Part shown: positions 29,778 to 57,797 of the stretch, piece by piece
Layout: each line of letters starts with the position of its first letter
Numbering within the stretch: position 1 is the first letter of the stretch
Origin: Escherichia coli
GTDB lineage: Bacteria > Pseudomonadota > Gammaproteobacteria > Enterobacterales > Enterobacteriaceae
NCBI RefSeq assembly: GCF_003334405.1
Contig: NZ_QOWM01000003.1
Reading direction: 5' to 3' (one strand)
Length of the DNA stretch: 64,000 bases
Notes under the pieces: generated by a model
What the model was told of the DNA's origin: nothing
What the model saw: only the letters and a program-made list of their open reading frames with translations
Database searches by the model: none
Translations under genes and position numbers: made by a program

Positions 29778-31073
29778 TTAATTTTTCATTGCTTCGTTAT
29801 GGGGCATGGTTGGGGCAAACTCGCTTAACTGTGTATTTAACAAAGCTACCTGTGCATTATTGTTTTCAGACATCCATTTTCCGTATACCTGAAATACCAT
29901 TTGCGCATCTGCATGGCCCATCTGGTTTGCTATAAATGCCGGGTTAGCACCAGCTGTCAGCGACCAGCAGGCATAAGTATGTCTCGACTGATATGATTTT
30001 CGATGGCGGAGTCCGGCACGTTTTATCGCTGCGTCCCACATCTGCCTTATTGAGTCAACGGTAAAATGGTCACCATAATTTTTTACTCTCGCTGACACTT
30101 CAGGTTGAAAAACAAAGGTGCATTTTTGTTTTTCTGTTCTGCCATACTCTCTGAGGTGAACATCAATGATATGCTCTTTGCTCAGTCTCGTTAATGTCAT
30201 CTGACTCCGGAGAGCGTCGATTGCTGGCTTAATAAGATGAATGACCCGATTGGTTCCCGCCTGTGTTTTTGGTACCGTGAAACGGTCTTTTGCTAAATTT
30301 CTCCTGATCATCATTGTTCCATTTTTCAGATCTATGTCCTCCCATCCAAGTGCACACAGCTCACCAGGGCGAACTCCAGTATAAACAGAAACACACCATA
30401 AATTTTTTGCTTGCTGATTTCTGCACGCATCGATAAGACGGATAAATTCTTCCCGCGAAAGAGGATCCGGAATGGTTCTTGATTCCTTTAATGGCGAGAT
30501 CCCCTTAAACGGATTATCTGCCAGGTAACCGTTATCAACACCAAACTGGAACACGGCGTTAAGATTTGTCATGTAATTATTTACAGTTACAGCCGATCTC
30601 CCTGGTTGTGTAACAATATAGTTACTTTTGGGGATCTGGTATCCAGTCAGTAACTCTTTACGAACCTCCAGTAATTTTTCTTTATTAATCGATGAGGCAA
30701 GATTTTTTTCACCGATTATGCTCAGGATATTTTTGATGACGGCACGGTATGTGTTGAGTGATGTTTTGGCGACTTCAGTTTCTTTCAGTGCCAGAAATTT
30801 TTCAGCCAGTTCTTTTATGGTTAAATCTTGTCGGGCCTCACCAAATTTTTCCAGATTGCGTGAGGAGGGAAACTGTTTTGCATAGTCGAAAACACCAGTT
30901 TTTATTGCGTAACAAACAGAGGAGCGTAGTTCACCTGCAACGCGCCTGTTTTTTGCTGTGTCAGGAACCCCCAGATTTTCCCTGACTCTTACGTCTTTAT
31001 AAACAAACCAGATACGTAATTTCCCTCCATGGTTTTCCACGCCTGTCGGATATTTCATTTCAACTTCTCTCAT
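29778..31073 (-). CDS. Lambdoid tyrosine integrase (apparently full length)
   Basis: 431-aa ORF with catalytic-domain motifs YTGVRPGELCALGWEDIDL, HTYACW and GHADAQMVFQVYGKW; real start may be the ATG at 31058 (MKYPTGV...) which has a GAGAAG upstream. Confidence 0.85.
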   Translation of the reverse strand: MREVEMKYPTGVENHGGKLRIWFVYKDVRVRENLGVPDTAKNRRVAGELRSSVCYAIKTGVFDYAKQFPSSRNLEKFGEARQDLTIKELAEKFLALKETEVAKTSLNTYRAVIKNILSIIGEKNLASSINKEKLLEVRKELLTGYQIPKSNYIVTQPGRSAVTVNNYMTNLNAVFQFGVDNGYLADNPFKGISPLKESRTIPDPLSREEFIRLIDACRNQQAKNLWCVSVYTGVRPGELCALGWEDIDLKNGTMMIRRNLAKDRFTVPKTQAGTNRVIHLIKPAIDALRSQMTLTRLSKEHIIDVHLREYGRTEKQKCTFVFQPEVSARVKNYGDHFTVDSIRQMWDAAIKRAGLRHRKSYQSRHTYACWSLTAGANPAFIANQMGHADAQMVFQVYGKWMSENNNAQVALLNTQLSEFAPTMPHNEAMKN

Positions 31074-31092: not shown

Positions 31093-31344
31093 TCAAGTAA
31101 GATGACGTCTTGGTCTCGCTGATGCCTGGCGCTCAATCCAGCGATCAATTTCTTCCAGGTTGTAAAAGCATGGACTGTTATCCCATGGCATACCGTCATG
31201 AGCGACATGCTTATATTCCCTTCCTTCCATAAACGATTTTTCCCGGGCCTTTTTTAACGTACCTTTTTTTATTCCTTTCAGCGCAATTAACTGCTCTTCG
31301 GATACCCATTTGCCGGGAGAGACAATCATGATTACTTCGCTCAT
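31093..31344 (-). CDS. Excisionase-like protein
   Basis: 83-aa ORF immediately upstream of int on the same strand; GREYKHVAHDG resembles the lambda Xis GREYLFHESA region. Confidence 0.55.
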   Translation of the reverse strand: MSEVIMIVSPGKWVSEEQLIALKGIKKGTLKKAREKSFMEGREYKHVAHDGMPWDNSPCFYNLEEIDRWIERQASARPRRHLT

Positions 31345-31416: not shown

Positions 31417-33315
31417 TTAAGAATCAGCCTGACTCGGGATCAGTTTTTGCCAGATAACTGAAACGTATTTTGCCTGGTAACGGGCGTCATCAAGTGCATT
31501 ATGGCGCTCACCTTCGAATGGAATAGCCGTTCTGGCATCGAAGTCTATGGCTTTCCCCAGCTCAACGATTGTGCGTACATCGCGATCGTTGTAGTAACGC
31601 CACGGGCAGGGGATCCCCTGCCGTTCGTATGAACGGCGCAAAATCGTGTTGTCGAAGTTGGCTCCATTTCCCCAAACCTGAACAAAAAATTCACCGGAGT
31701 TTTCGTCGATAAATTCTCGCAATTGTAACAGTGCATCATCTAACGGGATTTCATCGGTCATAATGGCAGATTGCGCTTCGCGTGATTGCTTAAGCCACCA
31801 TTTAATGGTGTCCCGATCAATGACTCCGCCAGCAGTTTCCAGATCGATAGTCTTACTAAATTCCGGTCCCATATCTCCGGTTTGCGGATCGAAAAATATT
31901 GCACCTATTGAGATGATCGGGGCATCAGGATTTTTTCCCATGGTTTCAAGGTCGATCATTAGATGGTCACACGTCCTGCTGGTGGATGTGATTTCGTGAT
32001 GACCGTTCACCTTAATTGGGTGATCTGCCGTCTCGCCAGTTTCATTATCGCTATTGTGATGCTGATTGCCGCCAGTGTTCTCCTTGTGTGGATGTTCAGC
32101 GCCTTCCATTTCCTCCGGATCATCTTCCTGAACTTCAACCTGATACTCTTCATCGAATGTTTCTTGGTATGTTGCGTCGCCCATCACCGCGCCACAATCA
32201 GGGCAGTTGCCGCCGCCGGTCTGACCGCAGGCGGTGCAGACTTTTTCCACTTCCTGTTGCGCTACTGGTTCAGGCTGTTTCGTTTCTGGCTCGTTTTGTA
32301 ACGCATTTGGACTGTTTTGTTCCGCTTTTTGGTAGTTCCGTTCCGATTCATGCTGGTTCTGGTTCACAGAATCGCGGGTCTGGAGCCCCTTAACCCATTT
32401 CGGATCATTCGGGTCACTAATCCCTTCAACAAATTCACCACGTGATGCAGCAAGCAACTTATCGGCGTCAGGCTGGCTGATATTGGCTGCCTGCATAATT
32501 TTGTTTACTTCGTCAGCGGTAACTTTTATCGGCTCTGGTTGTTCTGAATCTTCAGCGGTATCTACATTTTGCGGTAAGCCCGTGTATGTGCCATTTTTTC
32601 GGGCAAAATATTCTTCTTTTGTGATTTCAGTGGCGCCAGCAGCCAGTGCCTTATCCAGACCAGAGAGTTTGTTTGCGCGACCGTATTTTTCTCCGTCCTT
32701 ATCTGCGAAGAGGAAATAGAACGGCCCCTCACGCTCTACAGATGGTTCAGCTTCCGGCGCGGTTTCATTTTTTGGGATATCAGATACCTCAGTTTCCACT
32801 GCATCAGTTTGTGTTTCTGATGACTGGAGAACATCAACAGTGCCCAGGTCTGTTTCTTCATTCTCAAACACGCCCTTTGTCGTCAGGTATTCGCAGATAT
32901 ATTTGTTCAGTGCTACGGGATCTTTGTGAATGTCGATCGGACGCTCACGGACAAGGCCAAAAATAGTTTGGCGGTCGTAGCGAAGGGCATCAGGCTGTTT
33001 GCGCATTGATGCCGAGATACGCTTCCAGTCTTCGCGGTCGTTGTCGATAACTTCTTTTTTTGCCCAGCGATGGATGCTGCCGTCAATGTTTCCGGCATCC
33101 ACATCACTAGGCCAGAGAGCGTAGGCCAGTTCGTCATCCAGTGTTTTCCATGTCTGCTTGTATTCGCGATGAATGGCAGCAATGACCGGGCTGATTTTTC
33201 CTGTTGAATTTTCAGTGTACTGTTGATTGGCTCTGGCGCGGGCGAGATCAACAACAGACGTGTATTTTCCGGTTTCCTTGCGTTCACCTTCGCGACGTTT
33301 TTTCCAGATGCGCAT
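31417..33315 (-). CDS. Phage exonuclease with C-terminal DnaQ-like (DEDDh) 3'-5' exonuclease domain
   Basis: C-terminal MIDLETMG ... WGNGANFD ... HNALDDARY motifs; central CTACGQTGGGNCPDCGA zinc ribbon; long Glu/Asp/Gln-rich linker; 5' end uncertain (first ATG at 33315; the track ORF extends to a TTG at 33450). Confidence 0.6.
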   Translation of the reverse strand: MRIWKKRREGERKETGKYTSVVDLARARANQQYTENSTGKISPVIAAIHREYKQTWKTLDDELAYALWPSDVDAGNIDGSIHRWAKKEVIDNDREDWKRISASMRKQPDALRYDRQTIFGLVRERPIDIHKDPVALNKYICEYLTTKGVFENEETDLGTVDVLQSSETQTDAVETEVSDIPKNETAPEAEPSVEREGPFYFLFADKDGEKYGRANKLSGLDKALAAGATEITKEEYFARKNGTYTGLPQNVDTAEDSEQPEPIKVTADEVNKIMQAANISQPDADKLLAASRGEFVEGISDPNDPKWVKGLQTRDSVNQNQHESERNYQKAEQNSPNALQNEPETKQPEPVAQQEVEKVCTACGQTGGGNCPDCGAVMGDATYQETFDEEYQVEVQEDDPEEMEGAEHPHKENTGGNQHHNSDNETGETADHPIKVNGHHEITSTSRTCDHLMIDLETMGKNPDAPIISIGAIFFDPQTGDMGPEFSKTIDLETAGGVIDRDTIKWWLKQSREAQSAIMTDEIPLDDALLQLREFIDENSGEFFVQVWGNGANFDNTILRRSYERQGIPCPWRYYNDRDVRTIVELGKAIDFDARTAIPFEGERHNALDDARYQAKYVSVIWQKLIPSQADS

Positions 33316-33373
33316 CTCTGCCTGAATTTCGGGCCATTTAGCACCAGGAATACATTTATGCTTAACCCACCCA

Positions 33374-33640
33374 ATGGCGTGCAACTTAAGCTCCGGATAC
33401 GGGTTATTCCCCTCTGAACAGGCGCGTAAGGACTGGCAAAACGCCCGCAAAAAACTCTCGAGGGCAAAGGTGAAGAAACCTGCTGTGGTTGATCCGGACC
33501 TTATCTGGTCATCACCTGACGGAGAAATACGTCGCTACGACAGTCGCCTAAACATAATCTGTCGCGAGTGCCGGAAGAGCGAAGTTATGCAGCGCATACT
33601 GGCTTTCTATCAGGGTAATTTTCAGGACGTGGCGCAGTGA
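33374..33640 (+). CDS. Hypothetical small basic protein
   Basis: 88-aa ORF; stop overlaps the GTG start of the downstream methyltransferase fragment (GTGA); no recognisable SD. Confidence 0.3.
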   Translation: MACNLSSGYGLFPSEQARKDWQNARKKLSRAKVKKPAVVDPDLIWSSPDGEIRRYDSRLNIICRECRKSEVMQRILAFYQGNFQDVAQ

Positions 33641-47779: not shown

Positions 47780-48325
47780 ATGGAAGTCAACAAAAAGCAG
47801 CTGGCTGACATTTTCGGTGCGAGTATCCGTACCATTCAGAACTGGCAGGAACAGGGAATGCCCGTTCTGCGAGGCGGTGGCAAGGGTAATGAGGTGCTTT
47901 ATGATTCTGCCGCCGTCATAAAATGGTATGCCGAAAGGGATGCTGAAATTGAGAACGAAAAGCTGCGCCGGGAAGTTGAAGAACTGCGGCAGGCCAGCGA
48001 GACAGATCTCCAGCCAGGGACTATTGAGTACGAACGCCATCGACTTACGCGTGCGCAGGCCGACGCACAGGAGCTGAAAAATGCCAGAGACTCCGCTGAA
48101 GTGGTGGAAACCGCATTCTGTACTTTCGTGCTGTCGCGGATCGCAGGTGAAATTGCCAGTATTCTCGACGGGATCCCCCTGTCGGTGCAGCGGCGTTTTC
48201 CGGAACTGGAAAACCGACATGTTGATTTCCTGAAACGGGATATCATCAAAGCCATGAACAAAGCAGCCGCGCTGGATGAACTGATAACGGGGCGCACTTT
48301 GACGGTGACCAGAGCGGCACGGTGA
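47780..48325 (+). CDS. nohA: Terminase small subunit Nu1 homolog, C-terminus replaced at a deletion junction
   Basis: First ~168 aa match lambda Nu1 (MEVNKKQLADIFGASIRTIQNWQEQGMPVLRGGGKGNEVLYDSAAVIKWYAERD...ALDELI), then an unrelated tail TGRTLTVTRAAR-stop. Confidence 0.75.
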   Translation: MEVNKKQLADIFGASIRTIQNWQEQGMPVLRGGGKGNEVLYDSAAVIKWYAERDAEIENEKLRREVEELRQASETDLQPGTIEYERHRLTRAQADAQELKNARDSAEVVETAFCTFVLSRIAGEIASILDGIPLSVQRRFPELENRHVDFLKRDIIKAMNKAAALDELITGRTLTVTRAAR

Positions 48326-48609
48326 ATGGTGTCACGCCGCCAGCAGTTCAGCACCTGACCGCAGAAGTCACCGCAGACAGCGGGGAATACCAGGTGCTGG
48401 CGCGCTGGGACACGCCGAAGGTGGTGAAGGGGGTGAGCTTTATGCTTCGCCTGACCGTGGCAGCGGACGACGGCAGTGAGCGGTTGGTCAGCACGGCCCG
48501 GACGACGGAAACCACATATCGCTTCACGCAGCTGGCGCTGGGAAATTACAGGCTGACAGTCCGGGCGGTAAATGCATGGGGACAGCCGGTGCACATACCC
48601 ATTCGATGA
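48322..48609 (+). pseudogene. Fragment of tail tip/host specificity protein J (fibronectin-III-like region)
   Basis: ...[25 protein letters not shown] matches the lambda J C-terminal region; only about 95 codons present. Confidence 0.5.
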
Positions 48610-48884
48610 CATTTGTTTCAGGTGGTTCCAGTGGTGCTCCGGGAAGTGGATCACCTGATTATTCTAAATACAGTGTTAACACTTCTTCTGCAGGCGCTCA
48701 TACGCACTCTGTATCGGGTACTGCTGCAAGCGCAGGTGCACACGCACATACTGTCGGTATTGGTGCTCATACGCACTCCGTTGCGATTGGTTCACATGGA
48801 CATACCATCACCGTTAACGCTGCTGGTAACGCGGAAAACACCGTCAAAAACATCGCATTTAACTATATTGTGAGGCTTGCATAA
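48576..48884 (+). pseudogene. C-terminal fragment of side tail fibre protein Stf
   Basis: Gly/Ser/Thr-rich sequence with repeated GAHTHS motifs ([36 protein letters not shown]) typical of lambdoid Stf C-termini; no N-terminal part. Confidence 0.6.
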
Positions 48885-49459
48885 TGGCATTCAGAATGAG
48901 TGAACAACCACGGACCATAAAAATTTATAATCTGCTGGCCGGAACTAATGAATTTATTGGTGAAGGTGATGCATATATTCCGCCTCATACAGGTCTGCCA
49001 GCAAACAGTACCGATATTGCACCGCCAGATATTCCGGCAGGCTTCGTGGCTGTTTTCAACAGTGATGAGGCATCGTGGCATCTCGTTGAAGATCATCGGG
49101 GTAAAACGGTTTATGACGTAGCGTCAGGGGACGCGTTATTTATTTCTGAACTCGGTCCGTTACCGGAAAATGTTACCTGGTTATCGCCGGAAGGGGAGTT
49201 TCAGAAGTGGAACGGCACAGCCTGGGTGAAGGATACGGAAGCAGAAAAACTGTTCCGGATCCGGGAGGCGGAAGAAACAAAAAACAGCCTGATGCAGATA
49301 GCCAGTGAGCATATAGCGCCGCTTCAGGATGCTGTGGATCTGGAGATCGCAACGGAGGAAGAAACCTTGTTGCTGGAAGCCTGGAAAAAGTATCGGGTGT
49401 TGCTGAACCGTGTTGATACATCAACTGCACCGGATATTGAATGGCCAGCACTGCCGTAG
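48884..49459 (+). CDS. tfa: Tail fibre assembly protein
   Basis: 191-aa ORF; start overlaps the stf fragment stop. Confidence 0.8.
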
Positions 49460-49556
49460 GGTAAAACATATAAATTCTATAATTAGATGTATCTCTCCAT
49501 TTACGGCAAGGAAGGGGGCTTGGAAGACGTAAAGCATCTCACACCGAGATTATTTT

Positions 49557-50147
49557 TTATATGTCAGGTGTCTGACGTTTTGCTTTGGCTCTTAAAATGG
49601 TTTGCCGCGAGGTTTTGAATTCCCGGGCAATGGCACTTATACTTACACCTGACTTAATTCGTTCGAATACCACCTGTTTCTGTTCTTCATTTAACACAGG
49701 TGGTCGACCAAAACGTTTCCCTGCGCCGCGGGCTCTTACTATCCCGGAATGAGTGCGTTCAAGTAAAAGGTCTCGTTCAAATTCAGCGACTGCTGAAATT
49801 ACGTGCATCATCATTTTTCCTGTTGGACTGGTCAGGTCAATGCCCCCCAATGCTAAGCAATGCACTCTGATACCTGTTTCGGTCAGTTGTTCCACTGTTT
49901 TCCTGATATCCATTGCATTACAACCAAGGCGATCCAGTTTTGTCACAATCAATTGATCACCACATTTCAGGCGAGCAAGCAACCGGTTAAAACCAGGACG
50001 CTCACTGGTTGCTGCTGAGCCGCTAATGTGTTCTTCGATTATTTGCTGAGGTTTGATTTTAAAACCTGCACTTTCGATTTCCCGGCGTTGATTTTCGGTG
50101 GTCTGATCCAGCGTTGATATCCGACAGTAAGCAAAAATTCGAGACAT
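49557..50147 (-). CDS. pin: Serine recombinase, Hin/Gin/Pin DNA-invertase family
   Basis: 196-aa [23 protein letters not shown]... with catalytic Ser in RISTLDQ and C-terminal HTH. Confidence 0.88.
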
Positions 50148-50463
50148 AGTGAGACTCTATACGAAATTGGTGTTCATATCATAATGCATCTCAGAAAATA
50201 ATTTTGATTATTTTTGTGCATATTTGTATGTACACGTTCGAAAATAAACGAATGCGTATGCAACCCCGTAACTTTGGTGAGACCCAAAATCGATTTTGTG
50301 AAAAATGGCTTTAACTCGGTTTGTTTTTCGAGTTCCGGGCGGACTCAAGGAAGAAGAATAGTGTTGCGTGTTATTTTAACCAGATTTCAAGTTGTTTGGT
50401 CGTGGAAAAGTGGAGCAAAATGTTGTTAAAGTGGAAAAATGATAAAAAAGTAAGTTTATTATA

Positions 50464-50697
50464 TTACATTTTACCATTTAAATTTTGGTTGTCTTTAAGA
50501 ACTGATATCGCTGTTTGTAATAATTCTTTGTTATCCAGCCATGATTTTTTCTTTATGTTTCCTTCAATGTAATCAAGCAATGTTCTGGTATTGATAGGTC
50601 TTCCCTGTTTTGCTACTTCCACTACAGCATCCCCTAGGATAATTCTGACTTCAGGAAGCTGCGCAGGGAACCACTTTAGGGTGTCTTTTGATTTCAT
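50464..50697 (-). CDS. ynaE: DUF1737-like prophage small protein (YnaE/YdfK family)
   Basis: 77 aa from ATG 50697 (MKSKDTLKWFPAQLPEVRIILGDAVVEVAKQGRPINTRTLLDYIEGNIKKK...). Confidence 0.75.
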   Translation of the reverse strand: MKSKDTLKWFPAQLPEVRIILGDAVVEVAKQGRPINTRTLLDYIEGNIKKKSWLDNKELLQTAISVLKDNQNLNGKM

Positions 50698-51657
50698 GAA
50701 TATATTCCTTAAAATATTATTGATTTTCATTGCGATATTGTATGTCTGATTCAGGATATGTTGACTTATACATCGGTTTTGTCTGGGTTATTGGATATGC
50801 CAATCCCTAATTTTATTAGGGCATGACTAAAAATGCTGAATATGATAAGGAGCGAAGTGATTATCAGTATGCTGTTCATATAGCCTCGAATTAGTAATGT
50901 GTTATATATGATATAGTTGACAATTTTTATCCTGGGTGTTCTTAAAGTTCGTAGATAAACATTGTCGTTTCAGGTATACAGGAATGCTAACAGATGGCGG
51001 CAAAAATCAGGCGGTTTATGGCGCAAGCTGAAGTGGCAACTGCAAACTATCTTATGCAGAGACTCTACACGGATTGGGTTTAAAAGTATACATAGATAAC
51101 AGTTTTTATCTGAAGAAGAAAAATATCAAGGTGATATAGCCTATATGCCTTTGATGTGGAGGAATGAATGTGATGGGAGTGATGTATCTGAATAGTTGAA
51201 AAACCGCAGTCACGTCGTATGCAAGAACGTGCTGCGGTTGGTTTGACTTTGATTGAGACGTTTTGGAATTTTTTTTTGTGGCAAAAATGGGGCAAAACGC
51301 TGCAAAAGGGGCAAAAAAGGGGCAAAAAAAGAGTGGATTATCGTAGTTTATTGTTCTCGCTGATGATGTTTAACACATTGAAAAATAAGTAAAACACTTA
51401 TGAGTCAGATAGTTGTGATTTTTGCCCTTACTTGTTCAGATTGTATTGTTCTTTCTTACTAATTTCTTGATTTTGCGACATTTAAAAGCGACTCAATTCG
51501 TTATATGGCATCAGAAGAGTATGCGTCATGCCGGAACGCCCAGCATAAGAAATCTGATATAAAAAACTGTGGCGTGTATGGTACGGATTAGAGGGGAAAA
51601 TGTCAGCACATTTGCGAAATGAATCAAAAAGCCCGCAGCAATGTGCGGGCGTTAGTG

Positions 51658-52173
<516 letters not shown>

Positions 52174-52232
52174 TTAGATCAAAGGAGGAAGAATAAGCAG
52201 AAAAAGCCCGCCATAACAGCGGGCAGGAGGAT

Positions 52233-53366
52233 TTAGAACTGATAAACCAGACCTAAAGCGACAATATCATCGGTAGAGATGCCATTGGCAGCGTAGAAGC
52301 TGTCATCTTCATCCAACAGGTTGATTTTATAGTCAACGTAGGTGGACATGTTTTTATTGAAATAGTAAGTCGCGCCAATATCGGCGTATTTAACCAGATC
52401 TTTATCATCAACACCTGCCGGGTTGTCTGCACCACCCGCAGCGTGCAGGTCACGGCCTTTAGACATCAGGAAAGAGACTGCCGGACGCAGACCAAAATCA
52501 AACTGGTACTGTGCAGTGACTTCAAAATTCTGGGTTTTGTTTGCCACAGCATAATCGCTGTCGCCAAACGGGGTCATATTACGCGTTTCTGAATACATGG
52601 TTGCCAGGTAAATATTGTTAGCATCGTATTTTAGCCCAGCAGTCCACGCGTCTGCTTTATCACCACCCGCCGCAGTATGGTTAACCTGGTCATTGGTGCG
52701 GTCAGAAGAGGTGTATGCCGCACCAGCGCTAAAGCCCATGCCTAAATCATATGTTGTGGAAAGACCCCAGCCGTCACCGTTTTCATGGCGAACATCACGT
52801 CCGTTGTTGGTGCCTTCCTGACCATTACTGGCTCCTTCGTTGTTACCTTGATACTGCACCGCGAAGTTCAGACCATTTACCAGACCGAAGAAATCAGTAT
52901 TACGATAAGTCGCGACGCCATTGGCTCGACCAGTCATAAAGTTGTCTGCATTGGTATAAGAGTCACCGCCAAATTCAGGCAGCATATCGGTCCAGCCTTC
53001 GATGTCGTACATTACGCCATAATTACGTCCGTAATCGAAAGAACCGTAATCTGCAAATTTCAGCCCGGCAAATGCCAGACGGGTCCATGACTGGTTTTTT
53101 GAAGATTCAGTGTTGTTTGCCTGAATATTGTATTCCCATTGACCGTAGCCAGTGAGTTGATCGTTAATTTGGGTTTCGCCTTTAAAACCCAGACGCGCAT
53201 AGCTCTGGTCGCCATCTTTCGCTGAATTATCAGAAAAATAATGCAGGCCATCAACTTTGCCATACAGATCTAATTTGTTGCCGTCTTTATTATAAACTTC
53301 GGCTGCATGTGCAGCACCTGCGGCGAGCAGGGCAGGAATTAAAAGTGCCAGTACTTTGCTTTTCAT
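52233..53366 (-). CDS. ompN: General porin (OmpC/OmpF/PhoE family), OmpN-like
   Basis: 377-aa ORF with signal peptide, N-terminal [25 protein letters not shown] and C-terminal Phe; position between uspF and ydbK. Confidence 0.85.
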
Positions 53367-53732
53367 TGAATAAATCCTTTAGTTATTTTATTTGCCTTTT
53401 ATCCCCATTTCGGGGAGTGAAAACATCCTAAAGGAGAAGTTCAGTTAGCCGATAAATATCATTTGTTACGCCTTAAGTAAAACCTTAATCAAATAATTTC
53501 TCTGAAATGATAATAAGTCTGGTGAATGTATCGAAGATAATGCATACAAAATAAAAATTATACTTTTAATTTGCTATACGTTATTCTGCGCGGGTTATAT
53601 GCCTTTATTGTCACAGATTTTATTTTCTGTTGGGCCATTGCATTGCCACTGATTTTCCAACATATAAAAAGACAAGCCCGAACAGTCGTCCGGGCTTTTT
53701 TTTTAGAATTGGATAATCCTTATCCAGAGCAT

Positions 53733-56700
53733 TTAATCGGTGTTGCTTTTTTCCGCTTTTCCGGCCATTTGTGCCAGGAAGTCATAGCGTTTTTGCAAAT
53801 CAGCTGCAGCATCTTTCCATAACTGTTCTGCCACTTCTGGCTGCTGCGAATTCAGCCGACGGAAACGTTGCTCGTGAAGTAACGTTTCTTCCAGTGCTTC
53901 TGACGGCGGGCGTGAATCCAAGGCCAGCGGCAGTTTGCCTTCATCGGCACGACGCGGATCAAAGCGATATAGCGGCCAGAAGCCGGTAGCTGTGAGTTGG
54001 CGCATCTGGTCGTGGCTGAGTGCCAGATCGTAACCATGCTCTTCACACGGGCTATAAGCAATGATCAGCGATGGCCCCGGATACGCTTCCGCTTCCTGAA
54101 TCGCTTTCACCGTCTGGTTCAGCTGCGCGCCGAGAGAAATCTGCGCCACATAAACATGACCGTACATCATCATACTGACGCCAAGATCTTTACGCGCTTT
54201 ACGTTTGCCGTGCTCGCCAAATTTAGTTACTGCACCCAGCGGTGTCGCTTTCGACGCCTGACCACCGGTGTTGGAATAGCATTGCGTATCCAGCACCAGA
54301 ATGTTGACGTTTTCCGTCAAACTCAATACATGATCCAGACCGCCAAAGCCGATATCGTAAGCCCAGCCATCACCACCAATCAGCCAGATTGATTTTTCCA
54401 CCAGTGCATCTGCATCACGTAGCAGTTCATGTGCTTCGGCAACATCGTTGAGTTGCTGGCGTAAAGCTGCAACCTGTTCACGACGAACCTCTGGCGTGGC
54501 GTCTGATTTCAACGCCGTCAGTAATTCCGCCGGGATTTTATCGGCAAATTGATCCAGCAGACGCAGCACGCGGACACGGTGTTGATCGACCGTCAGGCGG
54601 AAACCAAGGCCAAATTCGGCATTATCTTCAAATAGAGAGTTCGCCCATGCCGGCCCACGACCGTTGGCATCGGTGGTATACGGTGTAGAGGGCAGGTTAC
54701 CGCCATAAATTGAAGAACAGCCAGTGGCGTTAGCGATCAACATCCGGTCGCCATAGAGCTGAGTCAGTAATTTAATATACGGCGTCTCGCCACAACCGGA
54801 GCAAGCACCTGAATATTCAAACAGCGGTGTAATCAGCTGCGATGTACGAATATCAATACGTTCCAGTTTGCTACGGTCGATTTCTGGCAGGTTGAGGAAG
54901 AAATCGTAATTGATTTTCTCTTCTTCGACATGTTCCAGGCGAGACATCATATTGATGGCTTTAATCTCTGGATTCTGACGGTCTTTCGCCGGGCAAACTT
55001 CGACGCACAGGTTACAACCGGTGCAATCTTCCGGTGCCACCTGCAAGACATATTTCTGCCCGCGCATATCACGCGATTTCACATCCAGCGAATGCAGGCT
55101 GGCAGGGGCGTTTTCCATCGCTTCAGGCGGCACCACTTTTGCGCGAATAGCTGAGTGTGGGCAAGCGGCAACGCAGTGGTTACATTGGGTACAGAGTTCC
55201 TCTTTCAAGATGGGGATCTCTTCGGCGATATTGCGTTTTTCCCAGCGCGTAGTGCCCATCGGCCAGGTGCCGTCTGGCGGCAGCGCCGAAACGGGGAGGG
55301 CGTCACCAAGCCCGGCGAGCATCGCAGCGGTTACGGTTTTCACGAAATCAGGGGCGGCATCGGAAACCACTGGCGGTCGATTGGCGCTGTGCGGATTTAC
55401 CGGTTGCAACGGAACTTCTTCTACGGATTCACGCGCCAGCGCCAGAGCCTGCCAGTTGCGTTCCACCAGATCCTGGCCTTTGCTACTGTAACTTTTGGCA
55501 ATCGCACCCTGCAATTCTGCGAGGGCGCTATCGCCAGGCAGAATTTGCGTCAGATGGAAAAAAGCCATCTGCATGACGGTATTAATACGGGCCGCCAGGC
55601 CACATTCGCGGGCGATTTTCGCCGCGTTAATCACATAGAAGCGCGCTTTTTTCTGGTTTAACACGGCCTGAACTTCTTGCGGCAAGCGCGACCACACTTC
55701 ATCTGTGCTGTACGGCGTGTTGAGCAGGAAAATGCCGCCAGGTTTTAAACGCTCAGCCATCTGATATTTATCGATAAACTGCAACTGGTGGCAGCCAACA
55801 AAATCAGCCTGGGAAATGAGATAAGCGGAACGAATCGGCTGTTCGCTCACTCGAAGGTGAGAAACCGTCAGGCCGCCCGCCTTTTTGGAGTCGTAAACAA
55901 AATAGCCCTGTGCGTACCACGGCGTGGAATTACCGATAATCTTGATATTGTTTTTGGTCGCGGAAACGCTGCCATCACTACCAAGGCCATAAAACAAGGC
56001 TTCCAGTTTCGCCGAGTTTGGCAGGGTGTTTTCCGGCAACGGCAGTGACAGATTGGTCACATCATCGTAAATACCAACCGTAAAGCGCGCTTTCGGTTTA
56101 GCCGCGTTGAGCTCGGCAAATACCGCCAGTACACAGTCTGGGCCAAATTCTTTGGATGAAAGACCATAGCGCCCACCAATGACACGGGGCAGAGTTTCGC
56201 GCTCGCCATTATTAAAGGCTTCTGCCAGTGCGGTCATTACATCCAGATAGAGCGGTTCTGCCTGGGCACCGGGTTCTTTGGTTCTGTCCAGTACCGCCAC
56301 GCTGCGTACGGATCCCGGCAGAGCTTGCAGTAAATGTTTAGCGGAGAAGGGGCGGTACAGGCGAACTTTCAGCACGCCAACTTTTTCGCCACGGGTTAGC
56401 AATTCATCAACCACTTCTTCACAGGTGCCAATGGCAGAGCCCATCAGGATAATCACCCGTTCCGCTTGCGGATGCCCGTAATATTCAAACGGCTGATACT
56501 GACGACCTGTCGCGGCAGAGAAATCATTCATCGCCTGTTCAACATGGTCATAGACCGCGTTGTACCATGGGTTGGTGGCTTCGCGAGACTGGAAATAAGT
56601 GTCAGGATTGGCGGACGTACCGCGGATCACCGGATGTTCCGGGTTGAGTGCCCGGGCGCGATGAGCATCAATTTCGACCTGCGGCATGAGATCAAGAATC

Positions 56701-57257
56701 GTGTCATCGGCCAGCGGGACAATTTTATTGATTTCGTGGGACGTGCGGAAACCATCAAAGAAATGAATAAATGGCACGCGGCTTTTCAGCGTCGCGATTT
56801 GCGAAATGAGAGCAAAGTCTTGCGCTTCCTGGACGTTTGCTGCACACAACATCGCGCAACCCGTCTGGCGCACCGCCATAACGTCGGAATGATCGCCAAA
56901 AATAGAGAGTGCATGTGTGGCAACGGTACGTGCCGCTACATGCAGGACAAACGGTGTTAGTTCGCCTGCCAGTTTGTACAGCGTCGGGATCATCAGCAGC
57001 AAACCCTGCGATGACGTAAACGATGTTGAAAGGGCACCCGTCTGCAAAGCGCCATGCACGGTAGCGATAGCACCCGCTTCCGACTGCATTTCAACCACGC
57101 GTGGTGTGTCTCCCCAAACGTTCTTTAAGCCGTTTCCGGCCCAGGCATCAGCCTGTTCTGCCATCGTGGAACTGGGGGTAATAGGGTAGATGGCGATAAC
57201 TTCACTGGTGCGAAATGCGACCGAAGCAACCGCGCCATTACCGTCAATAGTAATCAT
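53733..57257 (-). CDS. ydbK: Pyruvate:flavodoxin/ferredoxin oxidoreductase (NifJ-like)
   Basis: 1174-aa ORF with two ferredoxin-type CxxCxxCxxxCP motifs and a TPP-binding GGDGW region. Confidence 0.92.
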   Translation of the reverse strand: MITIDGNGAVASVAFRTSEVIAIYPITPSSTMAEQADAWAGNGLKNVWGDTPRVVEMQSEAGAIATVHGALQTGALSTSFTSSQGLLLMIPTLYKLAGELTPFVLHVAARTVATHALSIFGDHSDVMAVRQTGCAMLCAANVQEAQDFALISQIATLKSRVPFIHFFDGFRTSHEINKIVPLADDTILDLMPQVEIDAHRARALNPEHPVIRGTSANPDTYFQSREATNPWYNAVYDHVEQAMNDFSAATGRQYQPFEYYGHPQAERVIILMGSAIGTCEEVVDELLTRGEKVGVLKVRLYRPFSAKHLLQALPGSVRSVAVLDRTKEPGAQAEPLYLDVMTALAEAFNNGERETLPRVIGGRYGLSSKEFGPDCVLAVFAELNAAKPKARFTVGIYDDVTNLSLPLPENTLPNSAKLEALFYGLGSDGSVSATKNNIKIIGNSTPWYAQGYFVYDSKKAGGLTVSHLRVSEQPIRSAYLISQADFVGCHQLQFIDKYQMAERLKPGGIFLLNTPYSTDEVWSRLPQEVQAVLNQKKARFYVINAAKIARECGLAARINTVMQMAFFHLTQILPGDSALAELQGAIAKSYSSKGQDLVERNWQALALARESVEEVPLQPVNPHSANRPPVVSDAAPDFVKTVTAAMLAGLGDALPVSALPPDGTWPMGTTRWEKRNIAEEIPILKEELCTQCNHCVAACPHSAIRAKVVPPEAMENAPASLHSLDVKSRDMRGQKYVLQVAPEDCTGCNLCVEVCPAKDRQNPEIKAINMMSRLEHVEEEKINYDFFLNLPEIDRSKLERIDIRTSQLITPLFEYSGACSGCGETPYIKLLTQLYGDRMLIANATGCSSIYGGNLPSTPYTTDANGRGPAWANSLFEDNAEFGLGFRLTVDQHRVRVLRLLDQFADKIPAELLTALKSDATPEVRREQVAALRQQLNDVAEAHELLRDADALVEKSIWLIGGDGWAYDIGFGGLDHVLSLTENVNILVLDTQCYSNTGGQASKATPLGAVTKFGEHGKRKARKDLGVSMMMYGHVYVAQISLGAQLNQTVKAIQEAEAYPGPSLIIAYSPCEEHGYDLALSHDQMRQLTATGFWPLYRFDPRRADEGKLPLALDSRPPSEALEETLLHEQRFRRLNSQQPEVAEQLWKDAAADLQKRYDFLAQMAGKAEKSNTD

Positions 57258-57530
57258 ATGACACCCTTACATTGCGCAAATGAGGGGCGCACGAAATTGC
57301 TGCGCGCCCAGTAGTAATCTTTCAATTTTAGCAAATGGCTTTCTTCTGCATTTTCGCTTTTGTGTCCCCCACATCAGCGTAATGAATGTTTTGATCAAAC
57401 AGAGGGCAAAAAAATAGCCATAAAAAAGTAAAAATGCGGGGCAACGCGCAGGACAGCTCTCGACGCCGCCCTCTGTGCTGCCTATTATTTATGGCGGTGT
57501 CGTTTGGCTTGAAGATCAGAGGAAGAAAAG

Positions 57531-57797
57531 ATGCGAGCAGCGTTTTGGGTAGGGTGTGCCGCTTTATTGTTGTCGGCGTGTAGTAGTGAACCTGTTCAGC
57601 AGGCGACTGCCGCGCACGTAGCGCCAGGTTTAAAAGCGTCGATGTCCAGTAGTGGAGAAGCAAATTGTGCAATGATCGGCGGTTCGCTTTCTGTTGCCCG
57701 TCAACTGGATGGTACGGCGATTGGGATGTGTGCATTACCCAACGGCAAACGCTGTAGCGAACAGTCACTTGCCGCCGGGAGCTGTGGCAGCTATTAA
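57531..57797 (+). CDS. ydbJ: DUF333 lipoprotein
   Basis: 88-aa ORF with lipobox LLSAC. Confidence 0.8.
   Translation: MRAAFWVGCAALLLSACSSEPVQQATAAHVAPGLKASMSSSGEANCAMIGGSLSVARQLDGTAIGMCALPNGKRCSEQSLAAGSCGSY

Follow-up and report, generated by a model that had tools for sequence, protein, structure and literature searches.

The 677-codon open reading frame (ORF) studied here, on the minus strand of a 64,000-nt stretch of DNA (hereafter the window), is very probably what a Qin-type lambdoid prophage, integrated beside rspB, has left of its exonuclease gene: a 5'-truncated dead end. The initial annotation had taken it for a complete and unusually large gene, but the ORF retains only 660 of the 823 codons of its intact relatives. 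It is an ordinary pseudogene and does not represent a new enzyme architecture. In the RefSeq/PGAP annotation, both the exonuclease remnant and the neighboring DUF977 gene are already listed as pseudogenes ("incomplete... missing N-terminus").

The open reading frame and its locus

The ORF is hosted by an E. coli chromosome with a Qin-type cryptic prophage adjoining rspB. It runs in an uninterrupted frame from a TTG codon at 33450 to a stop codon at 31417-31419, and codon 46, at 33315, is the earliest in-frame ATG, from which a 632-aa product would be made. The ORF, this ATG, and the nuclease motifs discussed below were all confirmed in frame as initially annotated. The overlap with a divergent plus-strand ORF at 33374 is also real; the ATG and five codons of that listed ORF (33374-33640) come from the antisense strand of the exonuclease gene. 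Between the exonuclease remnant and xis in the window, no gene for a RecT/Bet-type annealing protein was found. None of the alternative-frame or antisense ORFs of at least 100 aa within 31417-33467 retrieved a PHROG match, and for this reason they were treated as chance ORFs rather than as genes. The features of the locus are listed in Table 1.

Table 1. Features of the exonuclease remnant and its surroundings, in window coordinates.
Feature	Position	Strand	Details
Exonuclease-derived DNA (true extent of the remnant)	31417..33400	-	823-aa Qin-type prophage exonuclease (ydfE family of K-12), codons 164-823 with the stop
Leader of 17 codons, with the TTG "start"	33401..33450	-	Antisense strand of the DUF977 gene, not exonuclease
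Deletion junction	33391..33400	.	Window reads GTATCCGGAG; 4,610 bp missing
Predicted DEDDh (DnaQ-like, T4 DexA-like) 3'-5' exonuclease domain, intact	31450..31965	-	PF16473, DexA alignment, AF2 fold
RecE-like region, homologous to RecE 278-592 (in the non-catalytic N-terminal part of the Rac protein)	32008..33105	-	BLASTP and NCBIfam NF007259
Conserved 40-aa box (DADKLLAASRGEFVEGISDPNDPKWVKGLQTRD...)	32374..32493	-	Common to RecE and relatives with other nuclease heads
Cys4 knuckle CxxC-x9-CxxC (putative zinc ribbon), then acidic tail	32191..32238	-	Near-identical to RecE 519-534 and onward
Acidic, mostly disordered linker	31969..32853	-	Net charge -37; contains the box, the Cys4 knuckle, and a small folded domain (ORF codons 242-286)
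DUF977/Ren-like gene, 3' fragment	33391..33640	+	C-terminal 82 codons and stop; phrog_142 positions 59-115 of 116
Excisionase gene, directly downstream of the exonuclease remnant	31093..31344	-	
Prophage integrase	29778..31073	-	Adjoins chromosomal rspB, the attachment-site end of the Qin-type prophage

A single deletion truncates the gene

Codons 18-677 of the ORF correspond to codons 164-823 of the intact exonuclease WP_000048342.1 with 0 amino-acid differences (100%), and mismatches to the full-length exonuclease are limited to ORF codons 1-17, which are unrelated sequence. The DNA of these 17 codons aligns to the DUF977 side of an intact locus (L004), and the exonuclease-derived DNA is collinear with L004 16921-23320 at 99.98% identity. 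An intact parent was found in strain USDA-ARS-USMARC-51408, which is collinear and 99.98% identical across 18.7 kb flanking both sides and has 4,610 bp extra at the junction. The profile of PHROG 2082 (823 positions) matches the ORF only from profile position 156 onward.

One deletion of 4,610 bp accounts for the junction. On one side it cut in the middle of DUF977, an early-right operon gene on the other strand; on the other side it cut at codon 163/164 of the exonuclease gene, which closes the early-left dicB operon. The parental copies of the junction read GTAGCCGGAG in DUF977 and GTATCCGGAG in the exonuclease gene, and the breakpoint microhomology is 3 bp when perfect and 9/10 bp when imperfect (GTA[G/T]CCGGAG). 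Lost with it were the O-like and YdaT-like genes, dicC, dicA, ydfA-C, dicB, ydfD and, judged by position, the dicF locus, together with the 5' part of DUF977. Gone from the exonuclease gene are its native start, ribosome-binding site, promoter, and codons 1-163. When a 551-bp junction probe was compared to 5426 complete E. coli genomes, it was split at window 33391/33400 in about 4,500 of them and contiguous in only 81. Strains 300709 and BUCT2930 are examples that have the junction.

The 5' end had initially been called ambiguous between the TTG and the ATG; both positions are correct, but the ambiguity is caused by the deletion junction rather than by a choice of start codon. The 660 leftover codons stay open and, by chance, continue into 17 antisense codons starting with TTG; the result looks like a gene of 677 aa whose 5' end is peculiar. 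One point against a dead remnant is that all 677 codons are open and that the undamaged catalytic domain matches its counterpart in a live phage exactly; the deletion is therefore recent and has left no decay by which disuse could be proven.

The nuclease domain

Sequence and structural predictions assign the C-terminal 180 aa, initially described as DnaQ-like, to the DEDDh 3'-5' exonuclease domains with an RNase H-like DEDD fold. The motifs DLETMG (codons 500-505, nt 31953-31936), WGNGANFD (codons 593-600, nt 31674-31651), and HNALDDARY (codons 650-658, nt 31503-31477) all lie in frame. Codons 496-667 match the Pfam family PF16473 (Rv2179c-like 3'-5' exoribonuclease) from model position 2 to 177, out of 177, with an E-value of 3.7e-67, far beyond chance, and the full-length 823-aa protein gives the same result. 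The catalytic residues are D500, E502, D600, H650, and D655 in ORF numbering (D646, E648, D746, H796, and D801 in the full-length protein); none of the five varies among six relatives of 51-99% identity, and the Exo I (DxE), Exo II (D), and Exo III (Hx4D) motifs are present. A phmmer comparison to T4 DexA (8KEL) yielded an E-value of 1.5e-6, with D, E, and D aligned to DexA D7, E9, and D119. Residues 640-823 of the AF2 model have pLDDT values of 70-93, and Foldseek searches with this model retrieved DexA (8KEL) as the best PDB match (E 9e-10), followed by RNase T, a Cas-associated DnaQ domain, Cap18, and Orn. Judging by these similarities, the intact 823-aa protein most likely degrades DNA from 3' ends.

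We would like to note that PF16473 is named after an exoribonuclease, which makes an RNA substrate possible for the 823-aa family. PADLOC returned only a weak, generic CRISPR-associated DEDDh match (E 1.8e-5), leaving membership in a catalogued defence system unsupported.

Expression of the remnant

The native start of the full-length exonuclease has a GAGG ribosome-binding site. No Shine-Dalgarno sequence was found upstream of TTG 33450, and a promoter scan upstream of the ORF detected 4 promoter-like sites versus 7.2 expected in shuffled sequence, i.e. no excess. From these sequence signals we infer a remnant without meaningful expression. It nevertheless could be proposed that expression of the shortened ORF persists, through read-through or initiation at ATG 33315, and gives the host a working DexA-like 3'-5' exonuclease that possibly acts against phages with modified DNA as EcD does. 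In favor of this, the DEDDh domain and all of the RecE-like linker are undamaged and match a functional phage copy exactly, the in-frame ATG could yield the 632-aa product if a transcript crosses it, and EcD, a plasmid-borne E. coli homologue of T4 DexA (the nearest solved structure), protects against T4 (PMC12153337). However, the promoter, operators, and ribosome-binding site are deleted, and the upstream DNA is antisense to convergent genes. EcD is furthermore a different, short protein with other termini, D90, whose loss defines EcD-like behavior, is still Asp in the exonuclease, the 5hmC-stacking Trp152 aligns with Tyr, and the PADLOC match is the weak and generic one given above. We consider expression of this kind improbable.

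The linker and its relation to RecE

The region upstream of the nuclease had been described as an acidic low-complexity linker, and it is indeed acidic and mostly disordered, but it is not uniformly low-complexity. ORF codons 200-494, between the helical part and the nuclease, contain 20.7% D+E, 6.8% Q, and 6.1% P, and pLDDT is below 50 for full-length residues 502-637. Within the linker are a small domain predicted with confidence (full-length 388-432), the conserved 40-aa box, and a Cys4 knuckle, CTACGQTGGGNCPDCG (codons 405-420, nt 32238-32191), which is the CxxC...CPDC motif noted in the initial annotation. All four Cys are conserved in every relative with the Cys4 module, RecE included; the module is missing from some DEDDh-bearing relatives (P0122, P0142, P0242). 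The AF2 confidence of this segment is low (about 45-53), and the spacing of its cysteines suggests a putative zinc ribbon.

The N-terminal part of the 823-aa protein (about residues 1-340) yields a confident AF2 fold prediction that matches no assignable family. BLASTP aligned full-length residues 262-627 to RecE 278-592 with an E-value of 2e-61 and 39% identity, and the NCBIfam model for RecE (NF007259) matched with 282.9 bits at model positions 271-600 of 877, its cut-off of 1269 not being reached. Consequently, the earlier statement that this is not a RecE/RecT architecture is only half right: the nuclease head differs and RecT is absent, but the region aligned by BLASTP is shared with RecE. 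The predicted architecture of the 823-aa protein comprises the N-terminal part, a RecE-type acidic linker with box and Cys4 knuckle, and a T4 DexA-like DEDDh head.

Distribution and context of the 823-aa family

Far from being unusual, as initially thought, this architecture is found among the most widespread E. coli prophage genes, with DNA related to the exonuclease gene present in 4825 of 5426 complete E. coli genomes. The fused 823-aa protein has 23,183 member sequences in one 90%-identity cluster, and Escherichia phage PhiR42_1 encodes the full-length protein with 100% identity. RefSeq names the family "exonuclease" or "3'-5' exoribonuclease domain-containing protein" (intact forms WP_000048342.1 and WP_000048363.1), and the protein database lists the Pfam accessions PF27430 and PF27432 for it.

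These data bear on two further readings of the ORF. The first, that it is a complete, unusually large early-region exonuclease of new architecture with the start codon alone in doubt, draws on the long uninterrupted frame and its coherent domains, and we regard it as very improbable: full-length homologues have 823 aa, the copy here is missing codons 1-163 and starts within the antisense strand of a different gene, RefSeq lists it as a pseudogene, and the architecture is ubiquitous and its scaffold common to RecE. The alignment to the intact locus refutes this reading. The second, that the long ORF is an artefact of two genes fused by a frameshift or indel, or of a chimeric assembly, is likewise refuted and has next to no probability even though relatives are mosaic and the DEDDh domain also occurs stand-alone in other phages (e.g. 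epsilon34 gp34), given that the fused protein is standard in thousands of E. coli genomes and a completely sequenced phage, that the identical deletion junction occurs in 81 independent complete genomes, and that the linker joining the parts is itself conserved with RecE; the fusion reported in the initial annotation is genuine.

The intact family probably consists of 3'-5' DNA exonucleases encoded in the early-left operon. The 823-aa protein is transcribed from this operon in the slot that recombination (Rec) modules occupy in other lambdoid phages, and its DexA-like 3'-5' head is delivered by a scaffold that in RecE carries a 5'-3' nuclease head. No biochemical characterisation of the 823-aa exonuclease was found in the literature searched.

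No recT or other annealing-protein gene adjoins the exonuclease gene: xis comes directly after it in the window and likewise in intact prophages and phage PhiR42_1. The missing annealing-protein neighbor in Qin-type phages weakens a classical recombination role.

A possible exchangeable scaffold

It is conceivable, and we offer it tentatively as a reading that is rather doubtful at present, that the ~640-aa non-catalytic part held in common with RecE is an autonomous, exchangeable scaffold on which lambdoid prophages mount nuclease heads of either polarity, exchanging them through recombination within the box and Cys4 linker, and that the DEDDh variant is no classical recombination exonuclease. 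Three C-terminal heads were seen: one of RecE type (5'-3'), one DexA-like (3'-5'), and at least one more domain without a Pfam-A match. Pfam-A searches on relatives with other C-terminal tails (P0210 and P0126) gave no significant match, and the third and fourth head types are left unnamed here.

The N-terminal region of RecE is still described as of unknown function (PMC11611040). If the scaffold reading is true, the function of this region could be studied through the DEDDh variant carried by most E. coli, and that variant might serve DNA scavenging or exclusion, like DexA. The role of the scaffold, once known, would explain both RecE and the 823-aa exonuclease. At the level of the family, what matters is an 823-aa exonuclease in about nine of every ten E. 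coli genomes, with a RecE scaffold, a nuclease of opposite polarity, and no annealing partner. At the level of the window the meaning is small, that of a recent deletion remnant in a decayed prophage which RefSeq had already flagged. The deletion itself is a case of textbook prophage grounding, in which the immunity switch was lost together with the toxic dicB and ydfD and, by position, dicF.

Comparison with known systems

The K-12 gene ydfE (b1577; Qin, PHROG 2082) is the same gene at the same position, after ydfD and before xis-int-rspB. It keeps the opposite, 5' end of the gene (about the first 256 codons), with IS2 interrupting it, whereas codons 1-163 and all expression signals are missing from the window copy.

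T4 DexA, a 3'-5' DNA exonuclease (PMC12153337), is the nearest solved structure (PDB 8KEL/8KEN) by both sequence and fold, and the Hx4D motif is present. It differs in being a stand-alone protein of 227 aa with extra loops and helices, and its identity to the exonuclease domain is only ~20%. DexA W152 aligns with Tyr in the exonuclease and S87 with Pro, the D90 equivalent is still Asp (PLDDALL), and D169 falls outside the alignable region. The DexA homologue EcD protects against T4 by the HREX strategy, and the marks taken to define the EcD type are loss of the equivalent of DexA D90 (a tetramer contact) and retention of those of W152 and D169 for 5hmC recognition (PMC12153337). We rejected the identification of the exonuclease domain with EcD (HREX), as the primer-inferred termini of EcD are MIDTET.../...TIPETYD and those found here are LMIDLETMG.../...IPSQADS.

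Rv2179c of Mycobacterium tuberculosis, which gives PF16473 its name, is an exoribonuclease by the Pfam description and belongs to the same Pfam family, to which the exonuclease has a full-length model match; a PDB sequence search retrieved no Rv2179c chains at E 0.01. Salmonella phage epsilon34 gp34 is 56% identical to the C-terminal domain of the exonuclease, but it has 182 aa and lacks the RecE-type scaffold. Its early-left operon gene lies between those for SSB and Abc2, beside a putative annealing protein, and it has been described as a likely genuine member of a Rec module (PMC12315714). None of the partners of gp34 (annealing protein, SSB, anti-RecBCD) accompanies the Qin-type gene.

The RecE protein of the Rac prophage has a scaffold in common with the exonuclease (helical segment, box, Cys4 knuckle, and acidic tail), the box and knuckle being nearly identical, and occupies the same slot of the early-left operon, upstream of xis-int. 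The two differ in their heads, a PD-(D/E)XK 5'-3' nuclease in RecE and a DEDDh 3'-5' nuclease in the Qin-type exonuclease, and in that Rac has recE-recT while the Qin-type exonuclease is without a recT partner. Residues 1-261 of the full-length exonuclease and 1-277 of RecE are unrelated by BLASTP in this pairing. The RecE catalytic module (about 564/606-866) has no match in the exonuclease, the alignment stopping at RecE 592; this module does match the relatives P0143 and P0234. Finally, a natural hybrid, P0128, combines the N-terminus of RecE (100% over residues 1-277) and RecE-like sequence into the linker with a DEDDh head that is 99% identical.

Origin of the truncated exonuclease ORF

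The 677-codon ORF, described in the initial annotation as an unusually large exonuclease, is a truncated pseudogene member of the Qin/ydfE family of prophage exonucleases, and as such is real but ordinary. The pseudogene call is already public in RefSeq, as is the family, in PHROGs and under the Pfam accessions PF27430, PF16473, and PF27432; DnaQ-like nucleases in lambdoid early-left operons were likewise already known (PMC12315714). Every motif originally listed for the ORF, the Cys4 knuckle, and the in-frame ATG were located in it (see table).

Features of the ORF, its surroundings, and the DNA missing at its 5' end (nucleotide positions are those of the window)
Feature	Position	Strand	Details
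ORF	TTG 33450 to stop 31417-31419	-	677 codons
In-frame ATG	33315	-	
Acidic stretch	ORF codons 200-494	-	D+E 20.7%, net charge -37
CTACGQTGGGNCPDCG (Cys4 knuckle)	ORF codons 405-420	-	
PF16473 (Rv2179c-like 3'-5' exoribonuclease domain)	ORF codons 496-667	-	whole model covered, E 3.7e-67 (Pfam)
DLETMG	ORF codons 500-505	-	
WGNGANFD	ORF codons 593-600	-	
HNALDDARY	ORF codons 650-658	-	
Chimeric ORF	33374-33640	+	ATG + five codons, exonuclease antisense; other 82 codons, C-terminal DUF977/Ren-like gene
sok antitoxin RNA (Rfam RF01794)	35415-35586	+	104 bits vs gathering score 59
Missing 4,610 bp			DUF977 5' part, O-like replication gene, YdaT-family gene, dicC, dicA, ydfA, ydfB, ydfC, dicB, ydfD, first 163 codons of the 823-codon exonuclease gene

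The start of the ORF had been considered ambiguous between the TTG and the ATG, but comparison with an intact parent identified a 4.6-kb deletion that fully explains the 5' end. Alignment of the ORF to PHROG 2082 (an exonuclease family of 823 positions) begins only at profile position 156. A 551-bp probe spanning the 5' end was contiguous in only 81 genomes and fell into two halves in about 4,500, one being DUF977 DNA up to window position 33391 and the other exonuclease DNA from 33400. The intact parent, USDA-ARS-USMARC-51408, is 99.98% identical and collinear on both sides and carries an additional 4,610 bases at the junction. By position, the missing piece also includes the dicF sRNA, which is annotated between ydfC and dicB in MG1655. 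Codons 18-677 of the ORF are identical to codons 164-823 of the intact 823-aa protein (WP_000048342.1), and codons 1-17, being DUF977 sequence read on the antisense strand, are unrelated to the exonuclease. The breakpoints share the sequence GTA[G/T]CCGGAG (3 bp of perfect and 9/10 bp of imperfect microhomology), consistent with an illegitimate deletion mediated by microhomology.

The native exonuclease start has a GAGG ribosome-binding site; none was found at TTG 33450, and promoter-like sites upstream of the ORF were not enriched over shuffled sequence. Judging from this anatomy, the window copy most likely does nothing, since it has no promoter, operator, or ribosome-binding site, and the DNA upstream of it is antisense. 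The ORF on the opposite strand is chimeric as the mirror image of the exonuclease ORF, and its DUF977/Ren-like part matches phrog_142 at positions 59-115 of 116. K-12 retains the complementary 5' fragment of this exonuclease gene, cut by IS2, as the pseudogene ydfE (b1577).

Genomic context

Of 5,426 complete E. coli genomes, 4,825 contain a match to the DNA of the ORF (2,034 bases), with many matches at 100% identity, and RefSeq labels the matching genes “3'-5' exoribonuclease domain-containing protein” or “exonuclease.” In strain 300709 the corresponding region is the Qin cryptic prophage adjoining rspB, with the order rspB, integrase, excisionase, and the ORF, followed on the opposite strand by genes for a DUF977 protein and a methyltransferase; in PGAP the ORF and its DUF977 neighbor both carry the label “incomplete... 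missing N-terminus.” The RF01794 match in the window points to a hok/sok-type toxin-antitoxin locus adjoining the prophage's ISNCY transposase remnant.

At the far prophage end, pinQ, ydfK, and ynfT-like DNA (about 48283-51241) is joined to uspF-ompN-nifJ-ldhA-ydbH-feaR (51241-64000), which in K-12 flanks the Rac prophage; ydfJ and ydfI, the genes at the Qin flank of K-12, are absent there. The arrangement suggests that inversion or recombination between the homologous ends of the two prophages produced a Rac/Qin hybrid junction. The late region is more gutted than that of 300709, with terminase, portal, head, and tail remnants amounting to about 4 kb gone, and at about 48283-48293 a remnant of the host-specificity protein J gene lies almost directly against terminase small-subunit DNA.

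The intact protein

The 823-aa form is the norm, with 23,183 member sequences in a single 90%-identity cluster, and Escherichia phage PhiR42_1, from ECOR13, encodes an identical protein in its complete genome, with the gene order of the prophage (ydfD, exonuclease, xis, int). The domain fusion is thus ancestral and conserved; a pair of genes fused by an indel is ruled out by the same two observations. All five catalytic residues are invariant among relatives down to 51% identity. The only solved structures matched by sequence were those of T4 DexA (8KEL and 8KEN, E 1.5e-6), whose D7, E9, and D119 correspond in the alignment to the DxE and FD aspartates of the C-terminal nuclease domain, or head. 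In an AF2 model of residues 440-823 the DEDDh domain is predicted with confidence; the closest fold in the PDB is that of DexA (E 9e-10), ahead of RNase T, a Cas-associated DnaQ domain, Cap18, and oligoribonuclease.

The stretch preceding the head is acidic, as first described, and mostly disordered by prediction, but it contains conserved modules and is therefore a structured linker rather than plain low-complexity sequence.

A scaffold shared with RecE

The view that this is not a RecE architecture holds only in part. The feature is not a RecE (the Rac exodeoxyribonuclease VIII): of three defining features looked for, none was found. The NCBIfam RecE model matched only positions 271-600, scoring far under the cut-off. 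Nevertheless, residues 278-592 of Rac RecE align with residues 262-627 of the 823-aa protein (E 2e-61), and the two proteins have nearly the same 40-aa box (DKLLAASRGEFVxGISDPNDPKWVKG...), Cys4 knuckle, and acidic tail. The homology stops just ahead of the RecE nuclease domain, which one review puts at residues 564-866, describing the N-terminal part as “of unknown function” (PMC11611040).

We searched 1.84 billion representative proteins with the non-catalytic scaffold (residues 1-640) and mapped the modules of the relatives. One relative, P0128, is 100% identical to K-12 RecE over its first 277 residues and carries a C-terminal DEDDh domain 99% identical to the Qin-type head, switching just downstream of the conserved box and ahead of the Cys4 knuckle; this hybrid is direct evidence that nuclease heads have been exchanged by recombination within the conserved linker. 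Two others (P0143 and P0234) join the helical segment and box of the 823-aa protein to a RecE-type head. Many relatives of about 730 aa (PHROG 2489; P0210, P0129, P0134, P0135, and P0187) share the scaffold and form a third class with a C-terminal phrog_7838-type “exonuclease” domain or tail, which has no Pfam-A match, and P0126 has yet another tail, phrog_26058. Proteins with these two tails may be the “RecE-2” proteins reported without a recognizable nuclease (PMC12315714). Only a subset of the family has the Cys4 knuckle.

Likely function and comparison with known systems

The intact protein would most likely be a 3'-5' exonuclease that requires metal and acts on the ends of DNA. One observation bearing on this is that its closest characterized relative, T4 DexA, is a DNA exonuclease (PMC12153337). 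A DexA-like role in DNA scavenging is possible, as is participation in exclusion in the manner of EcD, a short E. coli DexA homologue of the HREX antiphage strategy, although EcD is a different protein and the residues defining its behavior are not clearly present. RNA is a conceivable substrate. Against a classical recombination role weigh the lack of an annealing protein in Qin-type phages and a 3'-5' polarity opposite to that required for strand annealing.

Two further observations bear on the proposed activity. A stand-alone homologue, epsilon34 gp34 (56% identical), is encoded with SSB on one side and the anti-RecBCD gene abc2 on the other, beside a putative annealing protein. A 2025 survey lists DnaQ-like 3'-5' nucleases among the four types of nuclease reported for lambdoid Rec modules and remarks that such enzymes usually inhibit recombination (PMC12315714).
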